Below are positions 9,588-23,334 of a stretch of DNA of 37,659 nucleotides, in pieces. The notes beneath the pieces are model-generated. The model had not been told where the DNA came from, did not search any database, and saw nothing but the letters and a program-made list of their open reading frames with translations. The position numbers and the translations under genes were made by a program. How positions within the stretch are numbered: the first letter of the stretch is position 1; every line of letters starts with the position of its first letter. Origin of the DNA: a virus; IMG/VR virus record IMGVR_UViG_3300012668_000271. The stretch is one strand, 5' to 3'.

Positions 9588-10165
9588 TAATTACCCAATG
9601 CCACCCAATAAAAACCATTATAAGCTGTTCCACCTGTATAATTATAAAAAAAACCACTCGCATTTATTGTTTTACCAACAGATAAAGTTTGAGCATTTGT
9701 AGTATTGCCCGCATTTATCAAAGTTGTTGTAACAACAAAACAAGCAGTAGGAAATGCTGGACTAAATGAAACAAGTATATTTGAATCTGAAACAAGAGGA
9801 GAAACCTTACCCCATTTTAATAATATCCCACCAGCTAGTGAAGTTGTACCATTTAATGGTGTTGCTGTTGTTGGTGAAGAAATGATAACTGTTGAACCTA
9901 ATGCATTTTGCCAAATTGGCCATGATTGTCCATTGACTATATTAGCATACATAGCAGCATCTGCACTACTTAATCCAGGTGCTGCCTCATTAATCAAATG
10001 GACATGTTTATGAAATCCACCAGGAGTTGAAGAAGAAAGATTAAAGTTATAATGATCAACAGCTAATAAAGAATCTACGGCATTAGTATTGATTGTCATT
10101 AAAGGTCTATCAGCTGAAGGATTATTAGCACCGGCCGGGATATTTAAATTATAATTGATCGTCAT
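9587..10165 (-). CDS. tail fibre-like protein (192 aa)
   Basis: ORF inside the tail module with an Asn/Thr/Ser-rich beta-type composition. Assigned by position only. Confidence 0.5.
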   Translation of the reverse strand: MTINYNLNIPAGANNPSADRPLMTINTNAVDSLLAVDHYNFNLSSSTPGGFHKHVHLINEAAPGLSSADAAMYANIVNGQSWPIWQNALGSTVIISSPTTATPLNGTTSLAGGILLKWGKVSPLVSDSNILVSFSPAFPTACFVVTTTLINAGNTTNAQTLSVGKTINASGFFYNYTGGTAYNGFYWVALGN

Positions 10166-10177
10166 GAAATTAATTCC

Positions 10178-11386
10178 TTAAAAAGTTGTTCCGCCCTGAT
10201 TAGATCCTGATTGCCCTGTATTTTGACTTTGACTATATATCGTTTGTGTTCTCGTTGAAGTCCATTGTCTTTGGCTTCTTTTCCAAACAAGCATTTCCTG
10301 TTCTTTGAATAAAGTTTCATAAAACATAAATTGCTCAATATCTCCTGTATCAGATAACAATTTTCTAGCAGCTCCTCGTGCGATGTATTCAGCCATATAA
10401 GCAAATGGAATAGCATTTGCTGTATTTAAAAAAGCTGAAGGAGAAAGATATGCCTCTAATTCAACTAAATATTGTTTATCCGGAGGATTACGAAGCGTTA
10501 ATGTGTTATTATAGAATAGAATAGCACGAGGCAAACCGCATTGAAAAAAGTGACACTGAGCACTTATGTTAACACCTGATGGTATTGAAGATGGAAAATA
10601 AAGATTAATGACAGAACCTGTCAGATAATTTATCGTATTTTGAGTCGTTGAATAAGGTGTTGGTAAAGATCCTCCATTTGGTAATGCAGTATAACCAAAT
10701 GGTGCGGTTCCAGGAGTCATTAACAACCCATAGTTAGGTGAACTTGTTAAAAACTGACCACTATCTTGCACAATGATATTAGTACCGTTATTATCATTAG
10801 AAGTGATGTAAACTGCTGGAATTATACTTGTAGAAGGGATACTAAGATTTAAATTAGTTCCTAATGGAGGATCAATATTTGCACCTGTTGCAATAATACC
10901 TGCCATATCCACATGTCCTCTCAAAATTGCTTGAATAGGTGGATTTAAAGGAGAATTATTTACTGGAGCAATAGGGAAAGAGAAAGTATAAGGTCCAGAT
11001 GTTCCATTACCAACCGCAACAACATTCATTTGCTGAACTACATTTGTCCAGCTATTAAAAAATAAACCTTTTTCAGTTTGAAATGAAACTGGAATTCCAT
11101 TGATATAAGCAGGCCCTAAAAAACCTTGATAAACAGGATATGATGCAATTTTTTGATTGCCGGATTCCGTTTGAACATCATACAATGGCATGTTATACTG
11201 ATCTATACCGGGACTTGTCTGAAACTGATACGTTGTTTTAAGATCAAATAATTGAATCCTTGCATCAACATCCATAATCCAAAAGCGATTAATATAATCG
11301 ATAATTAGATTGTCACTTAAGACAGCATTAGAAGGTGTTTTAACAATTCTTCTAATGTATGTTATTATATCACTTAATATATTCAT
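10178..11386 (-). CDS. virion structural protein (402 aa), function unassigned
   Basis: Long ORF in the structural operon, 12 nt upstream of the next gene. Confidence 0.6.
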   Translation of the reverse strand: MNILSDIITYIRRIVKTPSNAVLSDNLIIDYINRFWIMDVDARIQLFDLKTTYQFQTSPGIDQYNMPLYDVQTESGNQKIASYPVYQGFLGPAYINGIPVSFQTEKGLFFNSWTNVVQQMNVVAVGNGTSGPYTFSFPIAPVNNSPLNPPIQAILRGHVDMAGIIATGANIDPPLGTNLNLSIPSTSIIPAVYITSNDNNGTNIIVQDSGQFLTSSPNYGLLMTPGTAPFGYTALPNGGSLPTPYSTTQNTINYLTGSVINLYFPSSIPSGVNISAQCHFFQCGLPRAILFYNNTLTLRNPPDKQYLVELEAYLSPSAFLNTANAIPFAYMAEYIARGAARKLLSDTGDIEQFMFYETLFKEQEMLVWKRSQRQWTSTRTQTIYSQSQNTGQSGSNQGGTTF

Positions 11387-12497: not shown

Positions 12498-13637
12498 CTA
12501 TGAACCAATATCATGCATATATGCATGCCAGTACACAATATTCGTATTAGCAATCAAAGTTGCTATACCATCTACTGCTGCTAAACCAGCACCGATTGTA
12601 AAGCCTTGAGATGTGTTATTTACATACGCACCTATAACAGCAGGACCATTAATAGTACTGCTATCATTTTTTGAAGCTACTGAATATTGAGGTGCTGGAT
12701 ACAATTGTGATCCTGCAGAAATTTGCACTCCACCTGTATTCACATCACCTACTGCTACCACTTGAGGGAAGCTAAGACCAGGTACACTTGCGACAGTTTG
12801 ATTAACACTAAAGGCTGTAAAACCTACAGAATTAATATTAACAACAAATGTAAAGTTATCAGTAACAGATACAACATATCCATAGATCGGTGATCCTGGA
12901 ATAAGTATATTTGGTAATGAATTCAATGCTGTCGTTTTCCAAGCTTGCGGTACTCTAAATGCAATTTCTTGTCCTACCTGAAACTGATGATTACTAGTTG
13001 TAACCACAGTTGTTGTAGCTCCCAAAGTAAGAGCGCTTATAAACGCTGATCCAGGAAGATACAACCAAGGATAAAGAATTTTCTTTACAGTCGCGTTAGC
13101 TGGTGAGCCGCTTAATGCTGTATAATTACTTCCACTACTATCCCATTTAACTGTAAATGTATTAGCAGTTACTGCTGAAATAGTAAAAGGTATACCTGCC
13201 ATTTGCGGTTGACCAGTAGTTGTTGTCTGGAATAATCCATTCAACAAAACTGTATCACCAATTTGGTAACCGTGCGCTGTTACTGTAAATACAGTAGGGT
13301 TTGCAGCAGTCGAACTAACAATTTGCTTAGTTGGACCAAATTGAGTCAATAAACCTGCTGAAAAAGGATTTATTGCCTGCTGTGCTGCTGAGTTTGGTAT
13401 TGTATCAAACACGCTTGAAGTGCTAGATCCTGCATACAACTCAATCATTGTTGGATTATTAGAACCATCAAGCAACCTAGAATCCCACCAAGCTCTTGTA
13501 ACGCTATGGATAGCTGCTGTCTTAATGTTACTATAGTTCCATAACTCAACATAATCAGGTATAAAAGGTAAATTAATTACTGCACTTGTACCTGTTGCAA
13601 TAAAATTACCCTTCGCCATTCTTGAATATTCAGTCAT
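12498..13637 (-). CDS. virion protein directly downstream of the capsid gene (379 aa), possible decoration or head fibre
   Basis: ATG lies 1 nt after the capsid stop codon. Two HGYQIGDTV / HQFQVGQEI modules. The function is inferred from position only. Confidence 0.5.
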   Translation of the reverse strand: MTEYSRMAKGNFIATGTSAVINLPFIPDYVELWNYSNIKTAAIHSVTRAWWDSRLLDGSNNPTMIELYAGSSTSSVFDTIPNSAAQQAINPFSAGLLTQFGPTKQIVSSTAANPTVFTVTAHGYQIGDTVLLNGLFQTTTTGQPQMAGIPFTISAVTANTFTVKWDSSGSNYTALSGSPANATVKKILYPWLYLPGSAFISALTLGATTTVVTTSNHQFQVGQEIAFRVPQAWKTTALNSLPNILIPGSPIYGYVVSVTDNFTFVVNINSVGFTAFSVNQTVASVPGLSFPQVVAVGDVNTGGVQISAGSQLYPAPQYSVASKNDSSTINGPAVIGAYVNNTSQGFTIGAGLAAVDGIATLIANTNIVYWHAYMHDIGS

Positions 13638-13638
13638 T

Positions 13639-14187
13639 TTATACCCCCAAATTGCTTAAGCGTGTACTTAACAAATTACGGATAGCCGTATCTTGCGTAA
13701 TAGCTTGAGCTTGAGCAAATTTAACTGCCAAGGTTGCATTCTGAGCTAGCATACCAGAGTAATAAGGATCACGATAAATTAAATTCATCGAGAAACCATC
13801 CTGATTAATATGCGTAATAGCCTGTTTACCTAAAACTGTGTTGTAATATACGTCATTCAAAGTACCAACGTTATTTGCAACACTATTTCTTGCTACAGGT
13901 GCTTCCGAACTTGTCAAAATACGGATATTAAATATTGATCCATATTCACTTGCCAAAGCAGATGCATTCGTAGGATAGTTCCATTGTGAAAGGAATCCTG
14001 CACCCACTAAAGAATCAAAATCGGACTGAAGTTCAGTCGAACTAAGCATAAAATATGCTGAACGAACTGGACCTGTTCCAAATCTATCCATGCCTTCAAT
14101 ACCAGACATGAATTTATAAGCATTGTTACTATCAAGAGTTGTAGCAACTAATGAGAAGTCTGAGACTCCTAAGTTAGTTGGGTTATA
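13639..14187 (-). CDS. major capsid protein, exon 3
   Basis: YNPTNLGVSDFSLVATTLD...LSSTELQSDF...EYGSIFNIRILTSSEAP fits the C-terminal two-thirds of HK97-fold capsid proteins. The exon start is proposed after the G at 14188, supported by a P10-like pairing of AUAAC with GUUAU. Confidence 0.75.
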   Translation of the reverse strand, partial: YNPTNLGVSDFSLVATTLDSNNAYKFMSGIEGMDRFGTGPVRSAYFMLSSTELQSDFDSLVGAGFLSQWNYPTNASALASEYGSIFNIRILTSSEAPVARNSVANNVGTLNDVYYNTVLGKQAITHINQDGFSMNLIYRDPYYSGMLAQNATLAVKFAQAQAITQDTAIRNLLSTRLSNLGV

Positions 14188-14201
14188 CATTCTATTACTT
14201 G

Positions 14202-14230
14202 TTGACTTAAACGCTTGATCTTGTTACAAT
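14202..14230 (+). promoter_or_regulatory. sigma70-like promoter TTGACT-17-TACAAT for the homing endonuclease
   Basis: TTGACT at 14202-14207, a 17-nt spacer, TACAAT at 14225-14230. The ATG follows 6 nt later at 14237 with no SD. The promoter lies entirely inside intron 2. Confidence 0.6.
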
Positions 14231-14236
14231 AATAAC

Positions 14237-15148
14237 ATGATCGATAAATACACTTTAGCTTACACAGCTGGTTACACCGATGGAGATGGATGTTTTCATA
14301 TAAGAAAAACAATCCGAAAATCTACTGGTATAGCCAAATATTCTTGTTCTTTCATCATCTCTTCTACAGATACTGATATTATTGAGTTCCTTGTAAAGAC
14401 TTTCCCAGGTATTCGACGCATAGTGCATAATGGAAAAAGATCTTCTATATGGAAACCTCAACATCATTTTGTGATTAGAGGAAAAAAATCCATTAAATTT
14501 GTTCAGCAAATTTTGCCATTTCTTATTGAAAAACGAGAAGAAGCTGAAATTTACTGCAAATTCATTAAATCTTTTTCTCGTGAAGAAAAAGAGATTCTGA
14601 TGAATCGACTTAAGGAAGTTAAAAATGAATGTAATTTGGTCAAAAAATCTCATAAGAATAATCTTCAAGAGTGTATCTTGACTTTGTGCCCTAGTGATTT
14701 GGATTTTGCTTATTTCGCAGGTTTTATAGATGCTGAATGTGCACTTGGTGTATTTAGGTACAACTCTAAAAATCGCGATAACTTTATTTACAAAATCCTT
14801 CTTCAATGTGGCAATACCAAACTTCCCATTTTTAAATGGCTTCTTGAGCGATTTGGAGGACAAGTTCATTTTGTAGAACGTCGTTCCAAAAACATTAATC
14901 ATCGAGATTTTTTGACTTACAGAATTTCCAGTAAATCTCTCGGTGAGTTGCTTCCAAGAATATTTCCTTATATCAAACACAAAAAAATTGTTTGTGTTGA
15001 ACTGATGAAATTTTATGAAACAACGACTCCATTGCAAGGAAACATAAGCAGAAATTCTCCAAAATTTAAAGAATTCTATGCTGATATACTCACTATGAGG
15101 GACACTATTTTTCATAAAGTTCATATTCTTAATCGTAAAGGTATTTAA
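14237..15148 (+). CDS. double-motif LAGLIDADG homing endonuclease
   Basis: Two LAGLIDADG motifs: LAYTAGYTDGDGCFHI and FAYFAGFIDAECALGV. 303 aa. Confidence 0.9.
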   Translation: MIDKYTLAYTAGYTDGDGCFHIRKTIRKSTGIAKYSCSFIISSTDTDIIEFLVKTFPGIRRIVHNGKRSSIWKPQHHFVIRGKKSIKFVQQILPFLIEKREEAEIYCKFIKSFSREEKEILMNRLKEVKNECNLVKKSHKNNLQECILTLCPSDLDFAYFAGFIDAECALGVFRYNSKNRDNFIYKILLQCGNTKLPIFKWLLERFGGQVHFVERRSKNINHRDFLTYRISSKSLGELLPRIFPYIKHKKIVCVELMKFYETTTPLQGNISRNSPKFKEFYADILTMRDTIFHKVHILNRKGI

Positions 15149-15337
15149 ACATTTAAGCGGGTGGTCATTTCTGCCACCTCTCATAGTTTCCTATGAGATT
15201 AGACTATCGCTTCACCTTTCGGTGTCTGACCGCTTTAGTCGTTCACGGTCCCTTTCGGGTTCCGCCTTGTTGTCTTCACCATGACGTGGTAAGAGTTCCA
15301 AGTCGATTAGGTCTGATTTTACAACGGCAATAACTCT

Positions 15338-15706
15338 ACCGTTGGATCCACCACCTGCGTTAATCTGAGAAGCTGCTGATACGATATAATCTCGTAAAAT
15401 CAAATCCTCTGCTTGACGCATGGCTACGGCAAGTCTTTCTGAAACCCAAGCGAGAACTCCCTCTTGGTCTTGCAAAATGACTTGTTCGTTGATTATGCAG
15501 CCAGTCTATAAGCATAATCTAGGATCATTTCGGCACTGGCAATGCAACCGAAAAACGCCATCTGAGCATCAATTATATCCCTTTGTGGTACCTGTGCAGG
15601 TGGATCAATACCCGCATTACCTAATTGTACAGTAGGTGGCTGTATCGCACGAGGGCGCATAAATCTGCAAGTAGTACCGCCATTAGCTGGCATTGATACT
15701 TTGTCA
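15338..15706 (-). CDS. major capsid protein, exon 2 (contains a 1-nt frame break near 15496-15507 as assembled)
   Basis: DKVSMPANGGTTCRFMRPRAIQPPTVQLGNAGIDPP...AFFG continues in another frame as ...QEGVLAWVSERLAVAMRQAEDLILRDYIVSAASQINAGGGSNG. The 5' boundary could instead be 15724. Confidence 0.7.
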
Positions 15707-15977
15707 CACACAGTAATGTAATTCCTTGTTGTTAAGGTACTTAAGTACCTATCCGATCATTTCTGTCGAATTCTCTATGTTTCCATAGAGTTCAGAGCAC
15801 CGCATCCACTTAATTAAGTGGTCTCTTCGCTTGCTACGTTCACGCTGCAAAGCTTTCGCCGGCTTGCGCCTTGTTGCCTTCAACATTACTTGGTCAGGGA
15901 TTCAAGTCCATCAGAAGAGATTTTACAACGACGAATATATTGCACAAAACATTTGTGCATGATATAGTTAAACTGCC
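15707..15977 (-). mobile_element. group I-like intron 1 of the capsid gene (ORF-less, about 253-271 nt)
   Basis: P1 pairing: exon CAACGAU (15984-15978) with GUCGUUG (15932-15926). Shares blocks with intron 2 (CGUUGUAAAAUC, UGAAGGCAACAAGGCG, CGUGAACG, CAGAAAUGA). Hairpins CUCUAUG-GAAA-CAUAGAG and GGUACUUAAGUACC. Confidence 0.75.
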
Positions 15978-16063
15978 ATCGTTGGGGTAGGAACATAAAG
16001 CATAGCTGGAGCTAAACTTTGTAGGATCATGGGACCCAGGTTCCCTGTAGTCGTAATAGACAT
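15978..16063 (-). CDS. major capsid protein, exon 1 (28 codons plus 2 nt)
   Basis: AAAGGAAT RBS, then ATG at 16063. Encodes MSITTTGNLGPMILQSLAPAMLYVPTPT. The unspliced frame stops 3 codons later. Confidence 0.7.
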
Positions 16064-16104
16064 TATTTTAATTCCTTTGTCTAATTACTAGATTTGTTAA
16101 ATCC

Positions 16105-16134
16105 GTGGACGAAGACGTAATACGTCCGTTTTTT
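16105..16134 (+). terminator. hairpin plus T6, plus-strand intrinsic terminator candidate
   Basis: GGACG (16107-16111) pairs with CGTCC (16123-16127) and is followed by GTTTTTT. It lies just beyond the capsid start codon, on the strand antisense to the capsid gene. Confidence 0.4.
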
Positions 16135-16224
16135 AACATATCGATTATGGATGCGAACCCACTACGCGAAACATGATAACAGTCATGTAAACTGAAATTT
16201 AACATATATCATAGTAAATATTTT

Positions 16225-16887
16225 ATGGCACCTAGAAAAACACATGGCATGTGTAAAACAAAAGAATATCAATGTTGGAGAGCATTTAAAAATAGATGTA
16301 TGAATGAAAAAAATGTTCAATTTAAAGATTATGGCGGTCGTGGAATAACTGTGAGTAATGAATGGTTAGAATTTGTGAACTTTTATTCTGACATGGGAAA
16401 TTGTCCTGATGGGTTTGAAATTGATCGTATCGATAATAATAAAGGATATTGCAAAAAAAATTGCAGATGGACTACTAAGAAAATAAATTCTAGGAATAGA
16501 AGATCCACAAAAAAACATAAAATTAATTCTGAAGAAATAGTCCAACAAGTTCTTTTAGAGAAGATTGGATGGACAAAAAATCAATTTAGATGGTTTAAAG
16601 ATCAATATGGCATTGATTGGATTTTAGAAAACTTCAAGAAAGGAACTTTGCCAGAAATAACTAATATACCTGTTGATAAAGATGAAATTATTGGAAAGAC
16701 AATGGGAAAATGGACAGTTCTAAAATTCGTTTCATATAAAAGATGTATAGGAAATACTTATTTATGTAGATGCCATTGTGGGCATGAAAAAGAAGTTAAC
16801 GGATATTATCTTAGATCTGGAAAAAGCACTCAATGCCGCAAATGTGCTTATCAAAAACAAGAGAATAAACCAAATCCAAAAAAATAA
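16225..16887 (+). CDS. free-standing HNH-like (IDRID...NCRW family) endonuclease-type protein
   Basis: KEYQCWRAFKNRC...YGGRGITV...FEIDRIDNNKGYCKKNCRWTT plus a C-terminal Cys cluster CRCHCG...CRKC. Opposite strand to the surrounding late genes. Confidence 0.65.
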   Translation: MAPRKTHGMCKTKEYQCWRAFKNRCMNEKNVQFKDYGGRGITVSNEWLEFVNFYSDMGNCPDGFEIDRIDNNKGYCKKNCRWTTKKINSRNRRSTKKHKINSEEIVQQVLLEKIGWTKNQFRWFKDQYGIDWILENFKKGTLPEITNIPVDKDEIIGKTMGKWTVLKFVSYKRCIGNTYLCRCHCGHEKEVNGYYLRSGKSTQCRKCAYQKQENKPNPKK

Positions 16888-16890
16888 CAT

Positions 16891-16923
16891 ATAGGGGTTC
16901 AAATTCACATTTGCAACCCCTAT
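16891..16923. terminator. 9-bp stem hairpin between convergent genes
   Basis: ATAGGGGTT (16891-16899) pairs with AACCCCTAT (16915-16923) around a 15-nt loop. The flanking T runs are weak. Confidence 0.35.
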
Positions 16924-17005
16924 AATTGAAAATTTATTACTTCTTTTTCTTTTCTTCTGGTTTAGGCATAGGCTTTTTGTCATCTTTATGTTTCATGGTG
17001 TCTCC

Positions 17006-19190: not shown

Positions 19191-21308
19191 TTATTGTTGT
19201 CCATTAGCTTGTTGTTGCATAGGCTGCATTGCTTGTCCTAGTATTTCTTGCAAAAACTTGTTAGATTCTGTCCTGCTTTCAACATCACGTTTTTCAAATT
19301 CTTCTTCCTGCATCATTTTTTGATTTTGAATATCTAATTGCAATTGACGATGATCTGTTTCTATTTCTCCAAATCTCTGAATATTTTCAAGTAATGATGT
19401 AAGAGCTGATTGTTTTTCTTTCAATGACATAGCTCTATTTCTTTCGATCATTGATAATCTTTCTTCATACAAGCCTAGATTAGATTCAGATCTTGAATGA
19501 TCTTCTCTTGCTCTAGCAATATTACTCATAGCTTTAGTCATCAGTTCTTGTAACTTAGCATTTTCAAAGGCATGTTGAATATTTTGACCTTCTGCTTGAA
19601 CGGCTTGTTGTTGCTGTTCTTGCTGCTGGAGGAACTTAATAGCTTCACCCTTACCTGTGATATTTAACTTAGGAATAATCATTGAAGGAGGGAATACTTC
19701 ACGACCAAATCTTTCATTAATTTCAAACATCTGTTGGGCTTGCAAATTCTGCTGAGTCGGAGTTAAATCAGATTCTTCAACAATCGTTTGAAATTTACAA
19801 AATACTTTACTATAAAAATAAGGCGTTGGCTCTTCACCAATGAGTAGTTTAACTTTCTCAGCATTCCAATTATTTAAAGCAATTTGAATAAGTCGTTCTC
19901 CGAGCAATTTATCAGATAAATCCCATTGATCAAAATACTTTTGGAAAACCATTAAGTTAGCAGCTTGTTTAATTAAAGCAGTAAGAGCAGATGTTTGTTT
20001 ATCATTCTGACCTGACCAATTCTCTAAATTAATCCCTGATGTTTGATAGATTAAATCAGCCATTTGTTGAGCTAAAGCAAGGTCACTTTCCGGAACAGCA
20101 GAAGGAATAATCTTCTGAATATCTGTCATCTCATAACCTTCATTAATGATGATATCCCAGCCTTGGCCTGATTTCTTTAGATTATCTTCATTAGCAACTG
20201 CACCACTCTTACGCATCCAACCTGCATTAACTGTAGCTGCTGCGATGTCATTATTTGTTATAATTTTGTAATTATATAAAAACTGAGGATCGCGCATAGT
20301 CCTAACGAGAGAGCGCACGCGTAAATCATGGTGATTAATGTGGGGTTCATAATTCCAAAAGTATGGAACAAAAGGGCATCCATCAAATCCAAGTGGGTTT
20401 TCTCCTTGAAACATAAGTTGATCATTTAAAACGACAGCTAATTTCCAACAAGGAACTTCAACAGTGATTTCTTCCATATCTGGAATATTATAAAGAATAG
20501 CTTCAAGATTTTCATCTCCACCAGAGAAATCAAAGAATTGATTTCTAGATCTACTATAAAGTCTTTTCTTTTTCCTTTTCCATTTATACCATACATATGA
20601 CAAGACCATTAAATCATTTTTGGCCATGTTATGATTTTCAGGAAGGAAATAGAAGTTACCATATCTTTGCGGTGAACCTGACATGGGTTTAATGTCTTTA
20701 AACTTATCAGGGAATCTATTTTCAGCTTCTTGTTTACTTATGTACTCTTGGCACCAAACAAATTGAGCATCTGACATATCAGGATTACGAAAATAAGGAT
20801 CAACAATGAAAGAATTATATTCCCATATTTTAACTTTAAGATCACCTTGAGCTTGATCATCTGAAGTATAATCTAAATAAGGCTGCATTAGAACCATTCC
20901 AGAGATAGCAGCTAATTCTTTTGCTTTAGACTTTTGTTCATGTATACAACCAGCATTGGCCACATTCGTAATTAATCTTGAATATTGATCAGTGGTATTA
21001 GTATCAGCACCTTCACAAGGCACATAATTAAAATTCTTTCTATGTTGTCTTTCATAACCTGTAATCATATTGACTGGTTGCTGAATCAAATTAAAATGAT
21101 ACTGTTGATATGAACTTTTTTGAGAGAAATTAAATTGACGATTTACATATTCTTGTGAGCCAGCATAGAAAAGAGTGTCAATATTACTTTGATTCCAACG
21201 TGCCGTTTCTAATGGCTGAAATTTAGCATATAAATTATCTAACCAATGTCTAATATTACCCTGATTTGGCTCTAAATTATTATTCCATGGTGCACTATAG
21301 AAAGAAAT
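19191..21308 (-). CDS. portal protein (705 aa if initiated at ATT 21308)
   Basis: Size and position after the large terminase gene. The N-terminal ...NIDTLFYAGSQ... region and the Gln-rich coiled C-terminus are typical of portal proteins. The ORF is open from 21317. The only start-like codon behind AGGAGG (21314-21319) is ATT at 21308-21306. Confidence 0.7.
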   Translation of the reverse strand: MSFYSAPWNNNLEPNQGNIRHWLDNLYAKFQPLETARWNQSNIDTLFYAGSQEYVNRQFNFSQKSSYQQYHFNLIQQPVNMITGYERQHRKNFNYVPCEGADTNTTDQYSRLITNVANAGCIHEQKSKAKELAAISGMVLMQPYLDYTSDDQAQGDLKVKIWEYNSFIVDPYFRNPDMSDAQFVWCQEYISKQEAENRFPDKFKDIKPMSGSPQRYGNFYFLPENHNMAKNDLMVLSYVWYKWKRKKKRLYSRSRNQFFDFSGGDENLEAILYNIPDMEEITVEVPCWKLAVVLNDQLMFQGENPLGFDGCPFVPYFWNYEPHINHHDLRVRSLVRTMRDPQFLYNYKIITNNDIAAATVNAGWMRKSGAVANEDNLKKSGQGWDIIINEGYEMTDIQKIIPSAVPESDLALAQQMADLIYQTSGINLENWSGQNDKQTSALTALIKQAANLMVFQKYFDQWDLSDKLLGERLIQIALNNWNAEKVKLLIGEEPTPYFYSKVFCKFQTIVEESDLTPTQQNLQAQQMFEINERFGREVFPPSMIIPKLNITGKGEAIKFLQQQEQQQQAVQAEGQNIQHAFENAKLQELMTKAMSNIARAREDHSRSESNLGLYEERLSMIERNRAMSLKEKQSALTSLLENIQRFGEIETDHRQLQLDIQNQKMMQEEEFEKRDVESRTESNKFLQEILGQAMQPMQQQANGQQ

Positions 21309-21424: not shown

Positions 21425-22018
21425 TTAACTTTTAAAAATTGCTCTTAAACGTATTCCGCAATCCTTTGAACAGTATTTATTTTTTGCATATTTATTGCTC
21501 ATGAATTTAATTCCACAACGACCGCATACTTTCTCTACATCATCAATTCCTGAGTTTCTACGCCATTTGCTTTTACATGCATTAGAGCAGAATTCTTGAT
21601 GATACATCTTGGTTTCTGCTACTTTTTGACAAACTTTGCAAATTATTTTTATAGGTTCTTTATTAATCCAAGTTAAAATCCCGTGAGCTTTATGCCAAGC
21701 TAAACCTTCTTCACTTGCGTGCCATGCTTTAGTTAATGGGCGAATTTTTTCGCAAAGTAATCTAGATCTTTCTCTGTTTTCTTCCGTGTAATGATGACTT
21801 ATATGTCTAGAAGCTTCTATCAGTTCAATGTTTTCAATCCTATTATCAGATTTATTTTCATTCTTATGATGGATATGATAACCAATTGGTATTTTCCCGT
21901 GTAAACTAATCCACACCCATCTATGTGCTCTAATACGAGGATAATCAGTTGATATCCAATAACCTGTTTTTTTGTCTTGGTAAAACAGTCGACCGAAATG
22001 TTCTTGATGTGTTATCAT
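21425..22018 (-). CDS. HNH endonuclease with C-terminal zinc-ribbon repeats
   Basis: HIHHKNENKSDNRIENIELIEASRHISHH (H-N-H signature), then CKVCQK...FCSNACKSKW and CGRCG...YCSKDCG. Confidence 0.85.
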   Translation of the reverse strand: MITHQEHFGRLFYQDKKTGYWISTDYPRIRAHRWVWISLHGKIPIGYHIHHKNENKSDNRIENIELIEASRHISHHYTEENRERSRLLCEKIRPLTKAWHASEEGLAWHKAHGILTWINKEPIKIICKVCQKVAETKMYHQEFCSNACKSKWRRNSGIDDVEKVCGRCGIKFMSNKYAKNKYCSKDCGIRLRAIFKS

Positions 22019-22050: not shown

Positions 22051-23334
22051 TCAAAAGGAACTTTTGAAGCGATTATTTCTATAATCATCAGGATTATGCT
22101 TGTAAGGATCGTATGAGGATGGCTTGTGAGTGAAGATTGCGTAGCGGAGGGAATCGCAACAATGGTCTTCGGTCTTCATAGGCTCATCATAACCTTTCTT
22201 AGCTGCCTTAGAATCCCATACATAAGATTCAATTTCACGTATGGTATTGACGCATTCGCTACATATCAATAGCTTGCCATTTCTAAGAAAAGTAGAAAGA
22301 TGCTGTATACCGTTAAGAACATCATTATTAGCGTGAGTCGCATGCATACCTTTCTTTCTTAACTCTAGTTGAAATGATTCTGCAGATGGATCTAGATATA
22401 TATTCTTAACTGAATAGGGTTCTAAGAACGCTTGCACATCATCTGCAAACTCAGAATTAACTTTCTGTCTACCTTTCTTCTTAGGATCCCAGTAATACTC
22501 TTTCTCTACCCACATTTGCACACCTTGCTGGGTGTACTTACCAGTGGATACGCCAATAAGCAGGCAGCAAAATGGGTTAGCTGTGCCGTAATCAATGCCA
22601 GCAATCCAATATTCAGCGGCACGCGGTGGTCTATCTACTACATGGATCTTTCTGTCGAAGAAATCGAATATGGCACCTTCAGCCATAACCCATAAACCAA
22701 GCACATTACGCTTATAGAACAGACCTGTAGCGCTATTTTTAATGCGATCTTTATAATGCTTCGGAAGGAATGTGTTATCATCTAATTCAAAATGTAAAGC
22801 ATAGTAATTCGGATCACCTTCTGCAGCTTTATCTATCCATTGCTTGCACTTATGGTTAGGATGAGATGGGTTCATAGCAGCGAAACCTTTGCTATGATTC
22901 TTTCTTAAGCGTGTGTCGATCATGTCTATAACGCTATCGGGGTATAACGTCATCTCATCGCATAGCATTAATGAAGCTGTCAATCCCTGAAAGTTACCAA
23001 TACTTCCCTCATCTTTTGCACCAAGAATGGTAATGGTTTTATCTTTGAAATAAAGCTTCTTTCCCGACCATGTGCAAAAAGGCTTATATAATGCTAATAC
23101 TGAATCATCAGGAGCCTCGACTATCAACCGTACCACATTACGATAAGCTGTGTCGAACGTATGACCTACAATGAATATATCTGAATCTGGACATTCATCA
23201 ACAGCGTGCATGAAACCAAATGTCGTACAAACAGTTTTTCCAGTGGATACAGCACCATGCGCTAGATTCCAATGACGGAAACAATTCGTTAAAAATTCTA
23301 GTTGCTTTGATGCGAAAGGATTTTGCATAATCAC
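22051..23334 (-). CDS. terL: terminase large subunit
   Basis: Walker A-like GAVSTGKT, a downstream LMLCDEM motif, and a C-terminal nuclease-type region with WIAGIDYG and EDHCCDSLRYA. Confidence 0.85.
   Translation of the reverse strand: MIMQNPFASKQLEFLTNCFRHWNLAHGAVSTGKTVCTTFGFMHAVDECPDSDIFIVGHTFDTAYRNVVRLIVEAPDDSVLALYKPFCTWSGKKLYFKDKTITILGAKDEGSIGNFQGLTASLMLCDEMTLYPDSVIDMIDTRLRKNHSKGFAAMNPSHPNHKCKQWIDKAAEGDPNYYALHFELDDNTFLPKHYKDRIKNSATGLFYKRNVLGLWVMAEGAIFDFFDRKIHVVDRPPRAAEYWIAGIDYGTANPFCCLLIGVSTGKYTQQGVQMWVEKEYYWDPKKKGRQKVNSEFADDVQAFLEPYSVKNIYLDPSAESFQLELRKKGMHATHANNDVLNGIQHLSTFLRNGKLLICSECVNTIREIESYVWDSKAAKKGYDEPMKTEDHCCDSLRYAIFTHKPSSYDPYKHNPDDYRNNRFKSSF

Follow-up and report, generated by a model that had tools for sequence, protein, structure and literature searches.

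A phage major capsid gene split by two probable group I-type introns and by a 41-nucleotide coreless insert that may be spliced with a borrowed ribozyme core

Organization of the capsid gene

The window analysed here, a stretch of 37,659 nucleotides (nt) of viral DNA (IMG/VR record IMGVR_UViG_3300012668_000271), carries a major capsid gene (16063..13639, minus strand) that is split into four exons by three inserts. Two of the inserts are large and related to each other; the third, 41 nt long, is the main subject of this text. The gene belongs to the structural module of a ~38-kb phage genome, together with a P22-type portal gene (19191..21089), a large terminase gene (22051..23334) and tail genes downstream. 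The capsid pre-mRNA would comprise the four exons and three group I-type introns in one transcript (Table 1).

Three-frame translation of the gene yields four capsid-like pieces (16063..15978, ~15724..15547, 15505..15338 and 14187..13639). When joined and searched against 5.8 billion protein clusters, they gave 1014 protein matches, the best of which are uninterrupted proteins of 322-330 amino acids (aa) with 84-90% identity and ~100% coverage. Several of these are called 'N4-gp56 family major capsid protein'; this name and PF25209 are the annotation of the sources themselves, and the HK97-type assignment was made from sequence alone. The spliced product also matches a PHROG major head protein (positions 56-336 of 356). 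Across the three junctions the homologues read VPTPTM/NYITVCDKV, MAFFG/TGCIINEQ and GGGSNG/YNPTNLG, and in all of them the alignment to the spliced capsid passes these points without gap or insertion.

A preliminary description of the locus had placed the start of the gene at a Shine-Dalgarno-preceded ATG at 16063, which indeed opens the sequence MSITTT...VPTPTM (unspliced, the frame stops after MAV), and the start of its last exon at 14187, which translation and homologue alignment bear out. The spliced protein was likewise found to be continuous with uninterrupted homologues across both of the introns proposed at that time. Exon 2 had been taken to resume at 15706, with 15724 as an alternative. 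The homologues read VPTPTM/NYITVCDKV, and the exon therefore starts at 15724, so that intron 1 is 15977..15725. Of the two resumptions of capsid sequence that had been described, the second stands, but the first, 15706..15338, is not one open frame. Unspliced, capsid frame 0 ends after exon 2a at a UAA (15495-15493), and the capsid sequence goes on in another frame. The homologues read MAFFG/TGCIINEQ at this place, which puts a 41-nt insert at 15546..15506 and makes the number of exons four instead of three.

A contig of 37,612 nt that was assembled from run SRR8842249 agrees with the segment 13400..16300 at every position (100% identity), and the identical mini-bearing open reading frame (ORF), or the small ORFs straddling the inserts, recur exactly in a second independent run, ERR10878202. 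As the same sequence is found in two runs, the interruptions are not errors of sequencing or assembly. In public assemblies the gene is called as ORFs of 31, 72, 87 and 183 aa. Among 50,697 GenBank phage records there was no tblastn match to the capsid protein (E<=1e-5) and no blastn match to the region. Close capsid homologues number more than 1000 in metagenomes, with none in GenBank phages, which looks like a common, uncultured group of ~40-kb phages.

Table 1. Positions of the capsid exons, the inserts and their parts, the features opposite or within intron 2, and short inserts of related capsid genes
Feature	Position	Strand	Length	Remarks
Capsid exon 1	15978..16063	-		MSITTT...VPTPT and AU of the Met29 codon
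Intron 1	15725..15977	-	253 nt	No ORF; ends in G15725; junction from homologue alignment
Intron 1, P10 strand	15936..15933	-		AUUC
Intron 1, guide	15932..15926	-		GUCGUUG
Intron 1, core P3-P9.1	15933..15748	-		
Intron 1, P9.2 hairpin	15750..15735	-		
Capsid exon 2a	15547..15724	-		NYITVCDKVSMPANGG...AQMAFFG
Coreless insert (putative mini-intron)	15506..15546	-	41 nt	Frame-breaking; between ...UUUUUCGGU (end 15547) and ACUGGCUGCAUAAUC... (start 15505)
Mini, L1	15546..15541	-		UGCAUU
Mini, P10 strand	15540..15535	-		GCCAGU, directly before the guide; pairs with the first 6 nt of the 3' exon, ACUGGC (15505..15500)
Mini, P1 guide	15534..15528	-		GCCGAAA; pairs with the last 7 nt of exon 2a, UUUCGGU (15553..15547), G·U at the splice site
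Mini, PX helix	15519..15512	-		Tail strand GAUUAUGC; pairs with nt 8-15 of the 3' exon, GCAUAAUC (15498..15491)
Capsid exon 2b	15338..15505	-		TGCIINEQVILQDQEG...INAGGGSNG
Intron 2	14188..15337	-	1150 nt	Ends in G14188; LAGLIDADG gene on the opposite strand
Intron 2, L1		-		AGAGUUAUU
Intron 2, guide	15328..15322	-		GCCGUUG
Intron 2, core P3-P9.1	15329..15157	-		
Intron 2, P9.2 stem	15159..15155 and 14216..14212	-		CGCUU with AAGCG, closing a ~940-nt loop
Intron 2, 3' tail		-		...CAACAAGUAAUAGAAUG
Capsid exon 3	13639..14187	-		YNPTNLGVSDF...STRLSNLGV; stop 13641..13639; phrog_1357 major head protein, positions 181-338 of 356
Double-motif LAGLIDADG homing endonuclease gene	14237..15148	+	303 aa	In the L9.2 loop of intron 2, antisense to the capsid gene
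Promoter-like site	14202..14230	+		TTGACT-17-TACAAT with TG; 6 nt upstream of the endonuclease ATG
Stop-free frame	14258..15190	-	311 codons	Capsid-sense strand, codon-aligned opposite the endonuclease gene
Mini of L007			34 nt	Homologous site FYG/TYV, capsid only ~45% identical; phase 0
Mini of L259			29 nt	Homologous site FYG/TYV, capsid only ~45% identical; phase 0
Mini of L283			36 nt	W/YGTY; phase 1
Mini of L293			43 nt	TGCI/INEQ; phase 2
Mini of L340			36 nt	TGCI/INEQ, same site as L293; phase 2
Second mini of L222 (site B)			33 nt	QDQEG/VLAW; phase 0

The two large introns

Both large introns have the ends of a group I intron. The last seven nt of the preceding exon, CAACGAU (15984..15978) before intron 1 and CAACGGU (15344..15338) before intron 2, pair with the internal guide to form P1 with a U·G pair at the splice site. 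P10 is short in both (4-5 bp) and is formed by AUUC/GAAU in intron 1 and by exon 3 AUAAC (14186..14182) with GUUAU of L1 in intron 2. The last nucleotide, as placed by the protein-defined junctions, is a G in either case. In one of the related loci, L088, the intron that occupies the intron 1 site shows compensatory change in P1 (CAACCAU/GUGGUUG), and the site of intron 2 is also occupied in L001, L010, L011 and L016. The loop L1 of intron 1 is unusually long, 45-46 nt (15977..15933), and contains the hairpin GCACAAAUGUUUUGUGC; it is also long in L088 and L089 at the same site, and most members of the intron family have L1 loops of 5-19 nt. The exon ends before the two introns, CCAACGAU (15987..15978) and CCAACGGU (15347..15338), are nearly identical, as are the two guides. 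Such look-alike ends would fit the spreading of one intron to a similar site, for instance by reverse splicing, and may equally be a chance match, which is not improbable in a 1-kb gene.

Relatives of the two introns were collected from viral contigs by a pattern scan with two shared blocks, and 22 diverse copies were aligned from the guide sequence to P9.1. In this alignment 96% of the cells form standard pairs, and compensatory changes on both sides are found in 36 of the 44 pairs. Covariation scores 0.70, as against 0.20 for shuffled alignments (none of 500 shuffles reached 0.70) and 0.09-0.14 when the partners are slid. All ten helices are supported (P3, P4, P5, P5a, P6/P6a, P7 in a pseudoknot with P3, P8, P9 and P9.1); they are 93-100% paired except for a single-pair extension of P5a (80%), and three of the five P7 pairs covary. 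The order of the core helices is P3-P4-P5-P6-P7-P3'-P8-P7'-P9 with the P3/P7 pseudoknot, i.e. the group I topology, and the full architecture of the family, P3, P4, P5-P5a, P6-P6a, P7, P8, P9, P9.1 and P9.2, is without P2 and without P7.1/7.2. P7 has an invariant G-C pair (columns 113/157) beside a nucleotide that is bulged in most members, and may include the guanosine-binding site. A 7-bp P1 with a terminal U·G lies within 60 nt upstream in 19 of the 22 members, where 1.8 would be expected.

A covariance model of the family, R1, was built from the same alignment. It finds intron 1 with 170.9 bits and intron 2 with 161.4 bits, the next best match in the window having 10.3 bits, and it weakly matches the T4 td intron in the P8-J8/7-P7-P9-P9.1 part, at the right place and on the right strand (10.7 bits, E 0.0018). 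Introns 1 and 2 are thus very probably group I-type introns, and both appear to be complete ribozymes. They belong to one phage intron family, which is abundant and had not been catalogued before. Their splicing would be initiated by guanosine: P1 would present the U·G splice site, P10 would align the 3' exon and the terminal G would enter the G site.

The core idea of the preliminary description, a capsid gene with two related group I-type introns, held on the strength of the junction-continuous alignment and the covarying group I structure. Several of its observations on the two inserts were confirmed: they share sequence blocks, among them TGAAGRCAACAAGGCG, which occurs in exactly two copies in the window; the GAAA-capped hairpins with compensatory changes correspond to P8, P9 and P9.1; and the 7-nt guide pairing with the exon end and the U·G at the splice site are present in both. 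The inserts had also been called richer in G+C than their surroundings. The ribozyme parts (0.42-0.47) do lie above the window mean of 0.34, but not above the flanking exons 1-2 (0.45), and the endonuclease part of intron 2 has 0.32. As a whole, the earlier observation is partly confirmed and the earlier interpretation partly supported.

The family is widespread. A 17-mer from J8/7-P7 matches at least 120 viral contigs, and family cores were recognized in at least 113 of 116 new loci (L228-L343), with a total of at least 312 cores; a family of this size has been invisible to Rfam. Up to nine cores are present per locus among the matches listed, in loci of at most ~15 kb. Across relatives, the ~325-codon capsid gene has family introns or minis at ten or more sites, including those after residues 22, 29, 31, 88, 97, 104, 120, 122, 144 and 163. 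The earlier remark that two introns in one capsid gene are unusual was therefore overstated, also in view of the five-fragment capsid genes of crAss-like phages (PMC7886860). A scan of genome contigs with a 17-mer was rejected as a survey of the family, since its matches are mostly due to chance (~139 are expected in 596 Gb, and 11 of the 120 listed had a core). The true matches among the genome contigs (L347, L359, L389, L415 and others) are ~40-kb contigs binned into metagenome-assembled genomes from unrelated phyla (Patescibacteria, Simkania, Parachlamydia and Babeliales); these contigs are probably mis-binned phage genomes.

The 41-nucleotide insert and its relatives

The third insert reads UGCAUU-GCCAGU-GCCGAAA-UGAUCCUA-GAUUAUGC-UUAUAG and ends in G15506. 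It has the substrate elements of a group I intron, namely a P1 guide with G·U at the 5' splice site, a P10 strand and a terminal G, and a further helix, PX, between its tail and the 3' exon. The 22 nt that follow the guide include one strand of this exon helix and leave no space for a P3-P9 core. Minimum free energy folds consist of a P1 hairpin and a PX hairpin, and P10 then bridges the two loops. Having no core, the insert is not an autonomous group I intron and was classed as a derivative, the substrate half; it and its relatives are referred to below as minis.

The mini is missing from 75 homologous capsid genes and is found at the same site, site A, in seven other metagenome or viral contigs (L001, L216, L217, L218, L220, L221 and L222), where its length is 35, 38 or 41 nt and L1 and the linker vary. 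Structure-only scans that are blind to sequence recover the site-A minis together with further examples, and a three-helix scan gave 9.0 per Mb in intron-bearing loci as compared with 2.0 per Mb in the background. An exact 19-mer of the window mini has no match in the viral contigs, and a 14-mer is too short as a query, giving at least 120 matches that are mostly chance.

Six further minis, one of them at a second site (site B) of L222, are listed in Table 1. In all, minis of 29-43 nt occupy five capsid sites that lie close to one another, and each of the three codon phases is represented. Removal of each restores conserved capsid sequence, and the helices of each match its own exons. In L007 all three helices are compensatorily changed: P1 is UUACGGU/GCCGUAA, P10 is ACCUA/UAGGU and PX is AUCUUAAAC/GUUUAAGAU. 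Between L293 and L340, P10 tracks a synonymous change in the exon (UGAUU/AAUCA and UAAUU/AAUUA, respectively).

The pairing constrains the exons. The exon codons paired with the mini are fixed in mini-bearing genes, reading TTT/C TTC GGT before the insert and ACT GGC TGC ATA ATC after it. The codons TGC ATA ATC are present in eight of eight site-A mini-bearing genes and in none of the 75 mini-less genes, of which 4 have the exact exon strand of P1, 13 that of P10 and 0 that of PX, never in combination. Downstream of the mini, pairs among the window, L001 and L217 have proportions of synonymous differences (pS) of 0.69-0.82, which are saturated, and of nonsynonymous differences (pN) of 0.09-0.125. 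The ratio of nonsynonymous to synonymous substitution rates (dN/dS) is ~0.05 for the window and L001, dS being saturated for the other two pairs. These values indicate that this part of the capsid gene is under strong purifying selection. The conserved pairings and the purifying selection mean that the insert must be removed or neutralised whenever the gene is expressed.

In L007, L216, L218, L220, L221 and L222 the mini is part of a tandem module, in which it is followed by a 26-nt micro-exon and then by a full-length intron. The micro-exon encodes TGCIINEQV or TYVILNEQV (L007 2537..2660; L216 5896..5830; L222 6193..6125) and is entirely engaged in P10 and PX of the mini and in P1 of the next intron; the module is kept between capsids that are ~45% identical. 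In the window, L001 and L217 no full-length intron lies directly after the micro-exon position, and other family introns are present.

On this evidence we hold with high confidence that the 41-nt insert is a conserved, selected, coreless mini-intron element of the group I type. Part of its sequence, GAAAUGAUC, has a match in L9.1/P9.1 of intron 1, a hint that the mini arose by internal deletion. No full-length ancestor was found at the site of the mini itself, the candidate L016b lying at the site of intron 2 instead. Three other descriptions of the insert were tried and dropped. An 8-nt direct repeat, GGTTGCAT/GGCTGCAT, that would make it a duplication-flanked insert of 47 nt or a hop site is a coincidence, as L001 has AUAAUU for UGCAUU; a frame constraint on its length, suggested by the site-A minis, which are all 2 mod 3, fails for the other minis of 29, 33, 34, 36 and 43 nt; and a simple -1 frameshift would need a slippery sequence, of which there is none in the 12 nt over which the two frames overlap.

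Removal of the mini-intron

Every mini-bearing locus inspected has at least one full-length family core. The places of the cores differ between lineages: the window has them at sites 29/30 and 144/145, L001 at 144/145, L216 at 31/32 and 97/98, L217 at 120/121, and L222 at 97/98 and 122/123; any intron at all was found in only ~9 of the best 80 capsid loci. Without a P3-P9 core the mini is unable to catalyse its own removal, and the explanation that we consider best overall, and regard as somewhat better than an even bet, is that it is a non-autonomous group I mini-intron spliced by a co-resident ribozyme. The mini would be a deletion derivative that has kept only the substrate side of the reaction: the P1 hairpin with its U·G, the PX hairpin, whose loop holds the 3' splice site and the terminal G, and a 6-bp P10 joining the two loops. 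This pre-formed P1-P10 substrate would dock into the core of a co-resident full-length intron, in the window intron 1 or intron 2, and the mini would be excised by the same two transesterifications. The helper could be a core of the same pre-mRNA, acting in cis, or a free intron RNA that acts in trans after its own excision. All catalysis, above all the use of a borrowed core, we infer from the sequences, and for the mechanism as such the balance tips slightly in favour. Whether minis of 29-43 nt constitute a natural class of non-autonomous introns, which would persist in essential phage genes as long as full-length family introns supply the ribozyme, is in our judgement evenly poised.

Several points weigh against splicing by a borrowed core. 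The co-occurrence of minis and cores is partly ascertained, the loci of L259, L283, L293 and L340 having been fetched by an intron motif; it is also phylogenetically non-independent, and the base rate of introns is perhaps underestimated because interrupted genes rank lower in the locus search. The nearest cores in the window are ~170-180 nt from the mini, each with a P1 of its own that competes for the active site. A two-helix structural scan gave 12 per Mb in intron-bearing loci and 16 per Mb in the background, mostly false positives, and the z-scores of single-sequence folds are weak (-0.65 to -2.7 for the site-A minis, +0.18 for site B of L222). The exact spliced capsid protein had no match in a collection of 15 billion proteins. 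No description of coreless group I mini-introns with conserved guide and P10 pairings was found in the open-access literature, and we are aware of no report of a group I core that acts in nature on a P1-P10 substrate other than its own. The group I membership of the helpers is also affected: a search of the window region with Rfam, including the RF00028 model proposed in the preliminary description as a check, gave no match at the gathering threshold or even at E<=10, and seven related loci with at least 12 family copies gave no relevant match at E<=1. Formally, this is an outcome that the preliminary description had named as refuting its interpretation. As the same search detects the T4 td intron (RF00028, 40.3 bits, E 2.7e-8), the negative result is genuine and not a failure of the tool, and the membership rests on architecture and not on a curated model.

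Among the alternatives, removal of the mini from the RNA by a protein nuclease and an RNA ligase, with the guide strand as a splint across P1-P10, or by some other host or phage factor, survives best, and is nonetheless unlikely. The coaxial P1-P10 helix would set both exon ends on a continuous splint, as suits nick-sealing ligases of the Rnl2 type, and in the window the mini has no core next to it. Against this reading, the U·G wobble and the terminal G, both conserved, are features by which group I ribozymes specifically recognise their substrates, and the strict association with full-length introns of one family would be a coincidence; moreover, the part of the window ORFs that was scanned included no RNA ligase or candidate nuclease.

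It is decidedly improbable that the mini stays in the RNA and is skipped by the ribosome in a programmed translational bypass of the kind known from T4 gene 60 and the mitochondrial byp elements, with the pairings joining the take-off and landing sites. A gap of 29-43 nt in a phage gene does resemble the 50-nt gap of gene 60, there are hairpins at both ends of the mini, and the site-A minis have GGU before the insert and GGC 3 nt after it. But hopping goes from codon to codon, whereas phases 0, 1 and 2 are all found among the minis; the gap ends in UAG, UUG, AAG or AUG and never in the take-off codon GGU, no stop codon directly follows that codon, and L007, L259 and site B of L222 are without a nearby GGN for landing. 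Landing on GGC would also remove two residues, T and G, that are nearly invariant in homologues, and bypassing leaves the U·G at the 5' site, the P10 strand adjoining the P1 guide and the terminal G unexplained.

That the two large inserts belong to another class of structured mobile RNA, which mimics P1 and the terminal G, has slightly less still to recommend it. The silence of Rfam in the face of a detectable T4 td, and the lack of P2 and P7.1/7.2, would agree with such a class, but the helices follow one another exactly as in group I introns, including the pseudoknot of P3 with P7 and the bulge in P7, and covariation is seen in all of them. R1 aligns to the corresponding part of T4 td, the J8/7-P7' of intron 2 (GAAGCGAUAGUCU) resembles the canonical S element, and a homing endonuclease gene in a peripheral loop is typical of group I introns. 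Least credible of all is that the mini is never removed, the capsid gene being dead or expressed as two polypeptides: the unspliced frame does stop at the UAA, but no SD-preceded start codon follows it, the break falls inside the nearly invariant motif FFGTGCIINEQ, the mini is kept in more than 12 contigs from different samples, synonymous sites of the exons are frozen where they pair with it, and both the dN/dS for the window and L001 and the pN of all three pairs are low.

Group I introns are textbook autonomous ribozymes, each with an active site of its own. If the 41-nt insert is faithfully removed from an essential, highly expressed capsid mRNA by a borrowed core, group I ribozymes act on the splice sites of others in nature. 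Such a system would be the first natural example of a group I ribozyme at work on foreign splice sites, and would give a living analogue of the step at which introns give up a catalytic core of their own and begin to rely on machinery shared with others. The locus would offer a tractable system, with phage DNA, one transcript and GTP, for the study of core loss, a transition that has been postulated for the path from group II to spliceosomal introns. A short insert that breaks the frame of a phage gene is usually put down to a sequencing error or taken as the mark of a pseudogene. The inserts described here are conserved elements and disrupt the calling of genes.

Endonuclease genes

The homing endonuclease gene of intron 2, on the opposite strand, was overlooked in the preliminary description. 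Its product has two LAGLIDADG motifs, LAYTAGYTDGDG and FAYFAGFIDAEC, and matches Pfam PF00961 (E 7.7e-8, 33.6 bits, cut-off 23.1) and, in two stretches, phrog_5046 (E 6.8e-37); the exact protein is on record from an NCBI whole-genome shotgun contig (LDNP01). The enzyme would presumably drive homing of the intron at the DNA level. The promoter-like site before the gene is the best-scoring one in 13500..17000 (10/12), the total of such sites being not above chance, and is suggestive of a gene with its own promoter and a nearly leaderless transcript.

The stop-free frame opposite the endonuclease gene is mirrored in the codon choice of that gene, which uses the codons TTA, CTA and TCA 1, 0 and 0 times, where 21 are expected (P~3e-10), and otherwise prefers codons ending in A. 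The sense frame is open in all seven introns with an antisense endonuclease gene that were examined (window, L001, L002, L006, L010, L011 and L216), and L217, in which the endonuclease gene is in the sense orientation, has no open frame of this kind. Translation of the stop-free frame possibly protects the 1-kb insert from transcriptional polarity or decay. No description of a systematic stop-free sense frame opposite antisense endonuclease genes was found in the open-access literature.

The L217 intron (10274..9598, capsid site 120/121) has its LAGLIDADG gene within the P5/P6 region instead of L9.2. This difference in placement indicates that the family has gained endonuclease genes more than once, in different loops and orientations. 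Two free-standing HNH-type genes are also present in the window. One (16225..16887, plus strand; phrog_374/3377, E 1e-48) is immediately upstream of the capsid gene on the opposite strand and might help intron 1, which has no ORF, or the mini to spread through co-conversion; the other (21425..22018, minus strand; Pfam HNH_3) is between the terminase and portal genes.

Comparison with known systems

Phage group I introns with homing endonucleases are known from td, nrdB and nrdD of T4, from orf142 of Twort, which has three introns, and from the DNA polymerase gene of SPO1. The large introns of the window share with these a guide-formed P1 with U·G, a P10 helix, a G as the last nucleotide and a P3-P9 core in which P3 and P7 form a pseudoknot; intron 2 also resembles them in that its endonuclease gene lies in a peripheral loop, and the capsid gene is like orf142 in having several introns, so that multiple group I introns in one phage gene were already known. 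Unlike the IA2 introns of the T4 type, they are without P2 and P7.1/P7.2 and are not recognised by RF00028. They also differ in that the endonuclease gene is antisense, with a stop-free frame on the strand of the host gene, and in the host gene itself, which encodes the capsid protein of uncultured phages without a relative among GenBank phages.

The untranslated gaps of T4 gene 60 and of the mitochondrial byp elements are, like the minis, short (~30-55 nt), located in coding sequence and flanked by RNA structure, but in the minis the take-off and landing codons do not match, each of the three codon phases is represented, and P1, P10 and the terminal G form the signature of a group I intron.

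Engineered group I ribozymes carry out trans-splicing and trans-excision-splicing, and naturally split, trans-spliced group I introns occur in Isoetes and in the cox1 gene of placozoans. Trans-acting group I cores can act on splice sites that are not covalently organised around them, and segments that end in G can be excised when held by P1 and P10; the engineered systems show that chemistry of this kind is feasible. In the trans-acting systems either the guide is in the ribozyme or two pieces rebuild one core, whereas here the guide is in the excised segment of 29-43 nt, which has no core element at all, and the helper is a complete intron with its own P1. We know of no report of a natural arrangement with the guide in the mini and the core elsewhere.

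In crAss-like phages (Zeta/Delta), capsid genes are split into five fragments, and group I introns were recognised there via endonuclease domains (Yutin et al. 2021, PMC7886860). The present gene resembles these in being a major capsid gene with several introns, and multi-intron capsid genes were in this sense known before; it differs from them in the phage group and the capsid family, and coreless short inserts with P1 and P10 pairings are not described there (PMC7886860) and were not found elsewhere in the open-access literature.

The relation of a mini to its putative helper has a conceptual analogue in the degenerate derivatives of group II introns, which belong to another ribozyme class with another chemistry, a branch-point lariat as opposed to guanosine. 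Euglena group III introns and spliceosomal introns are reduced to splice-site recognition elements and are served by catalytic RNA from elsewhere. Unlike in those derivatives, the relation of the mini to its helper is still visible within one gene.

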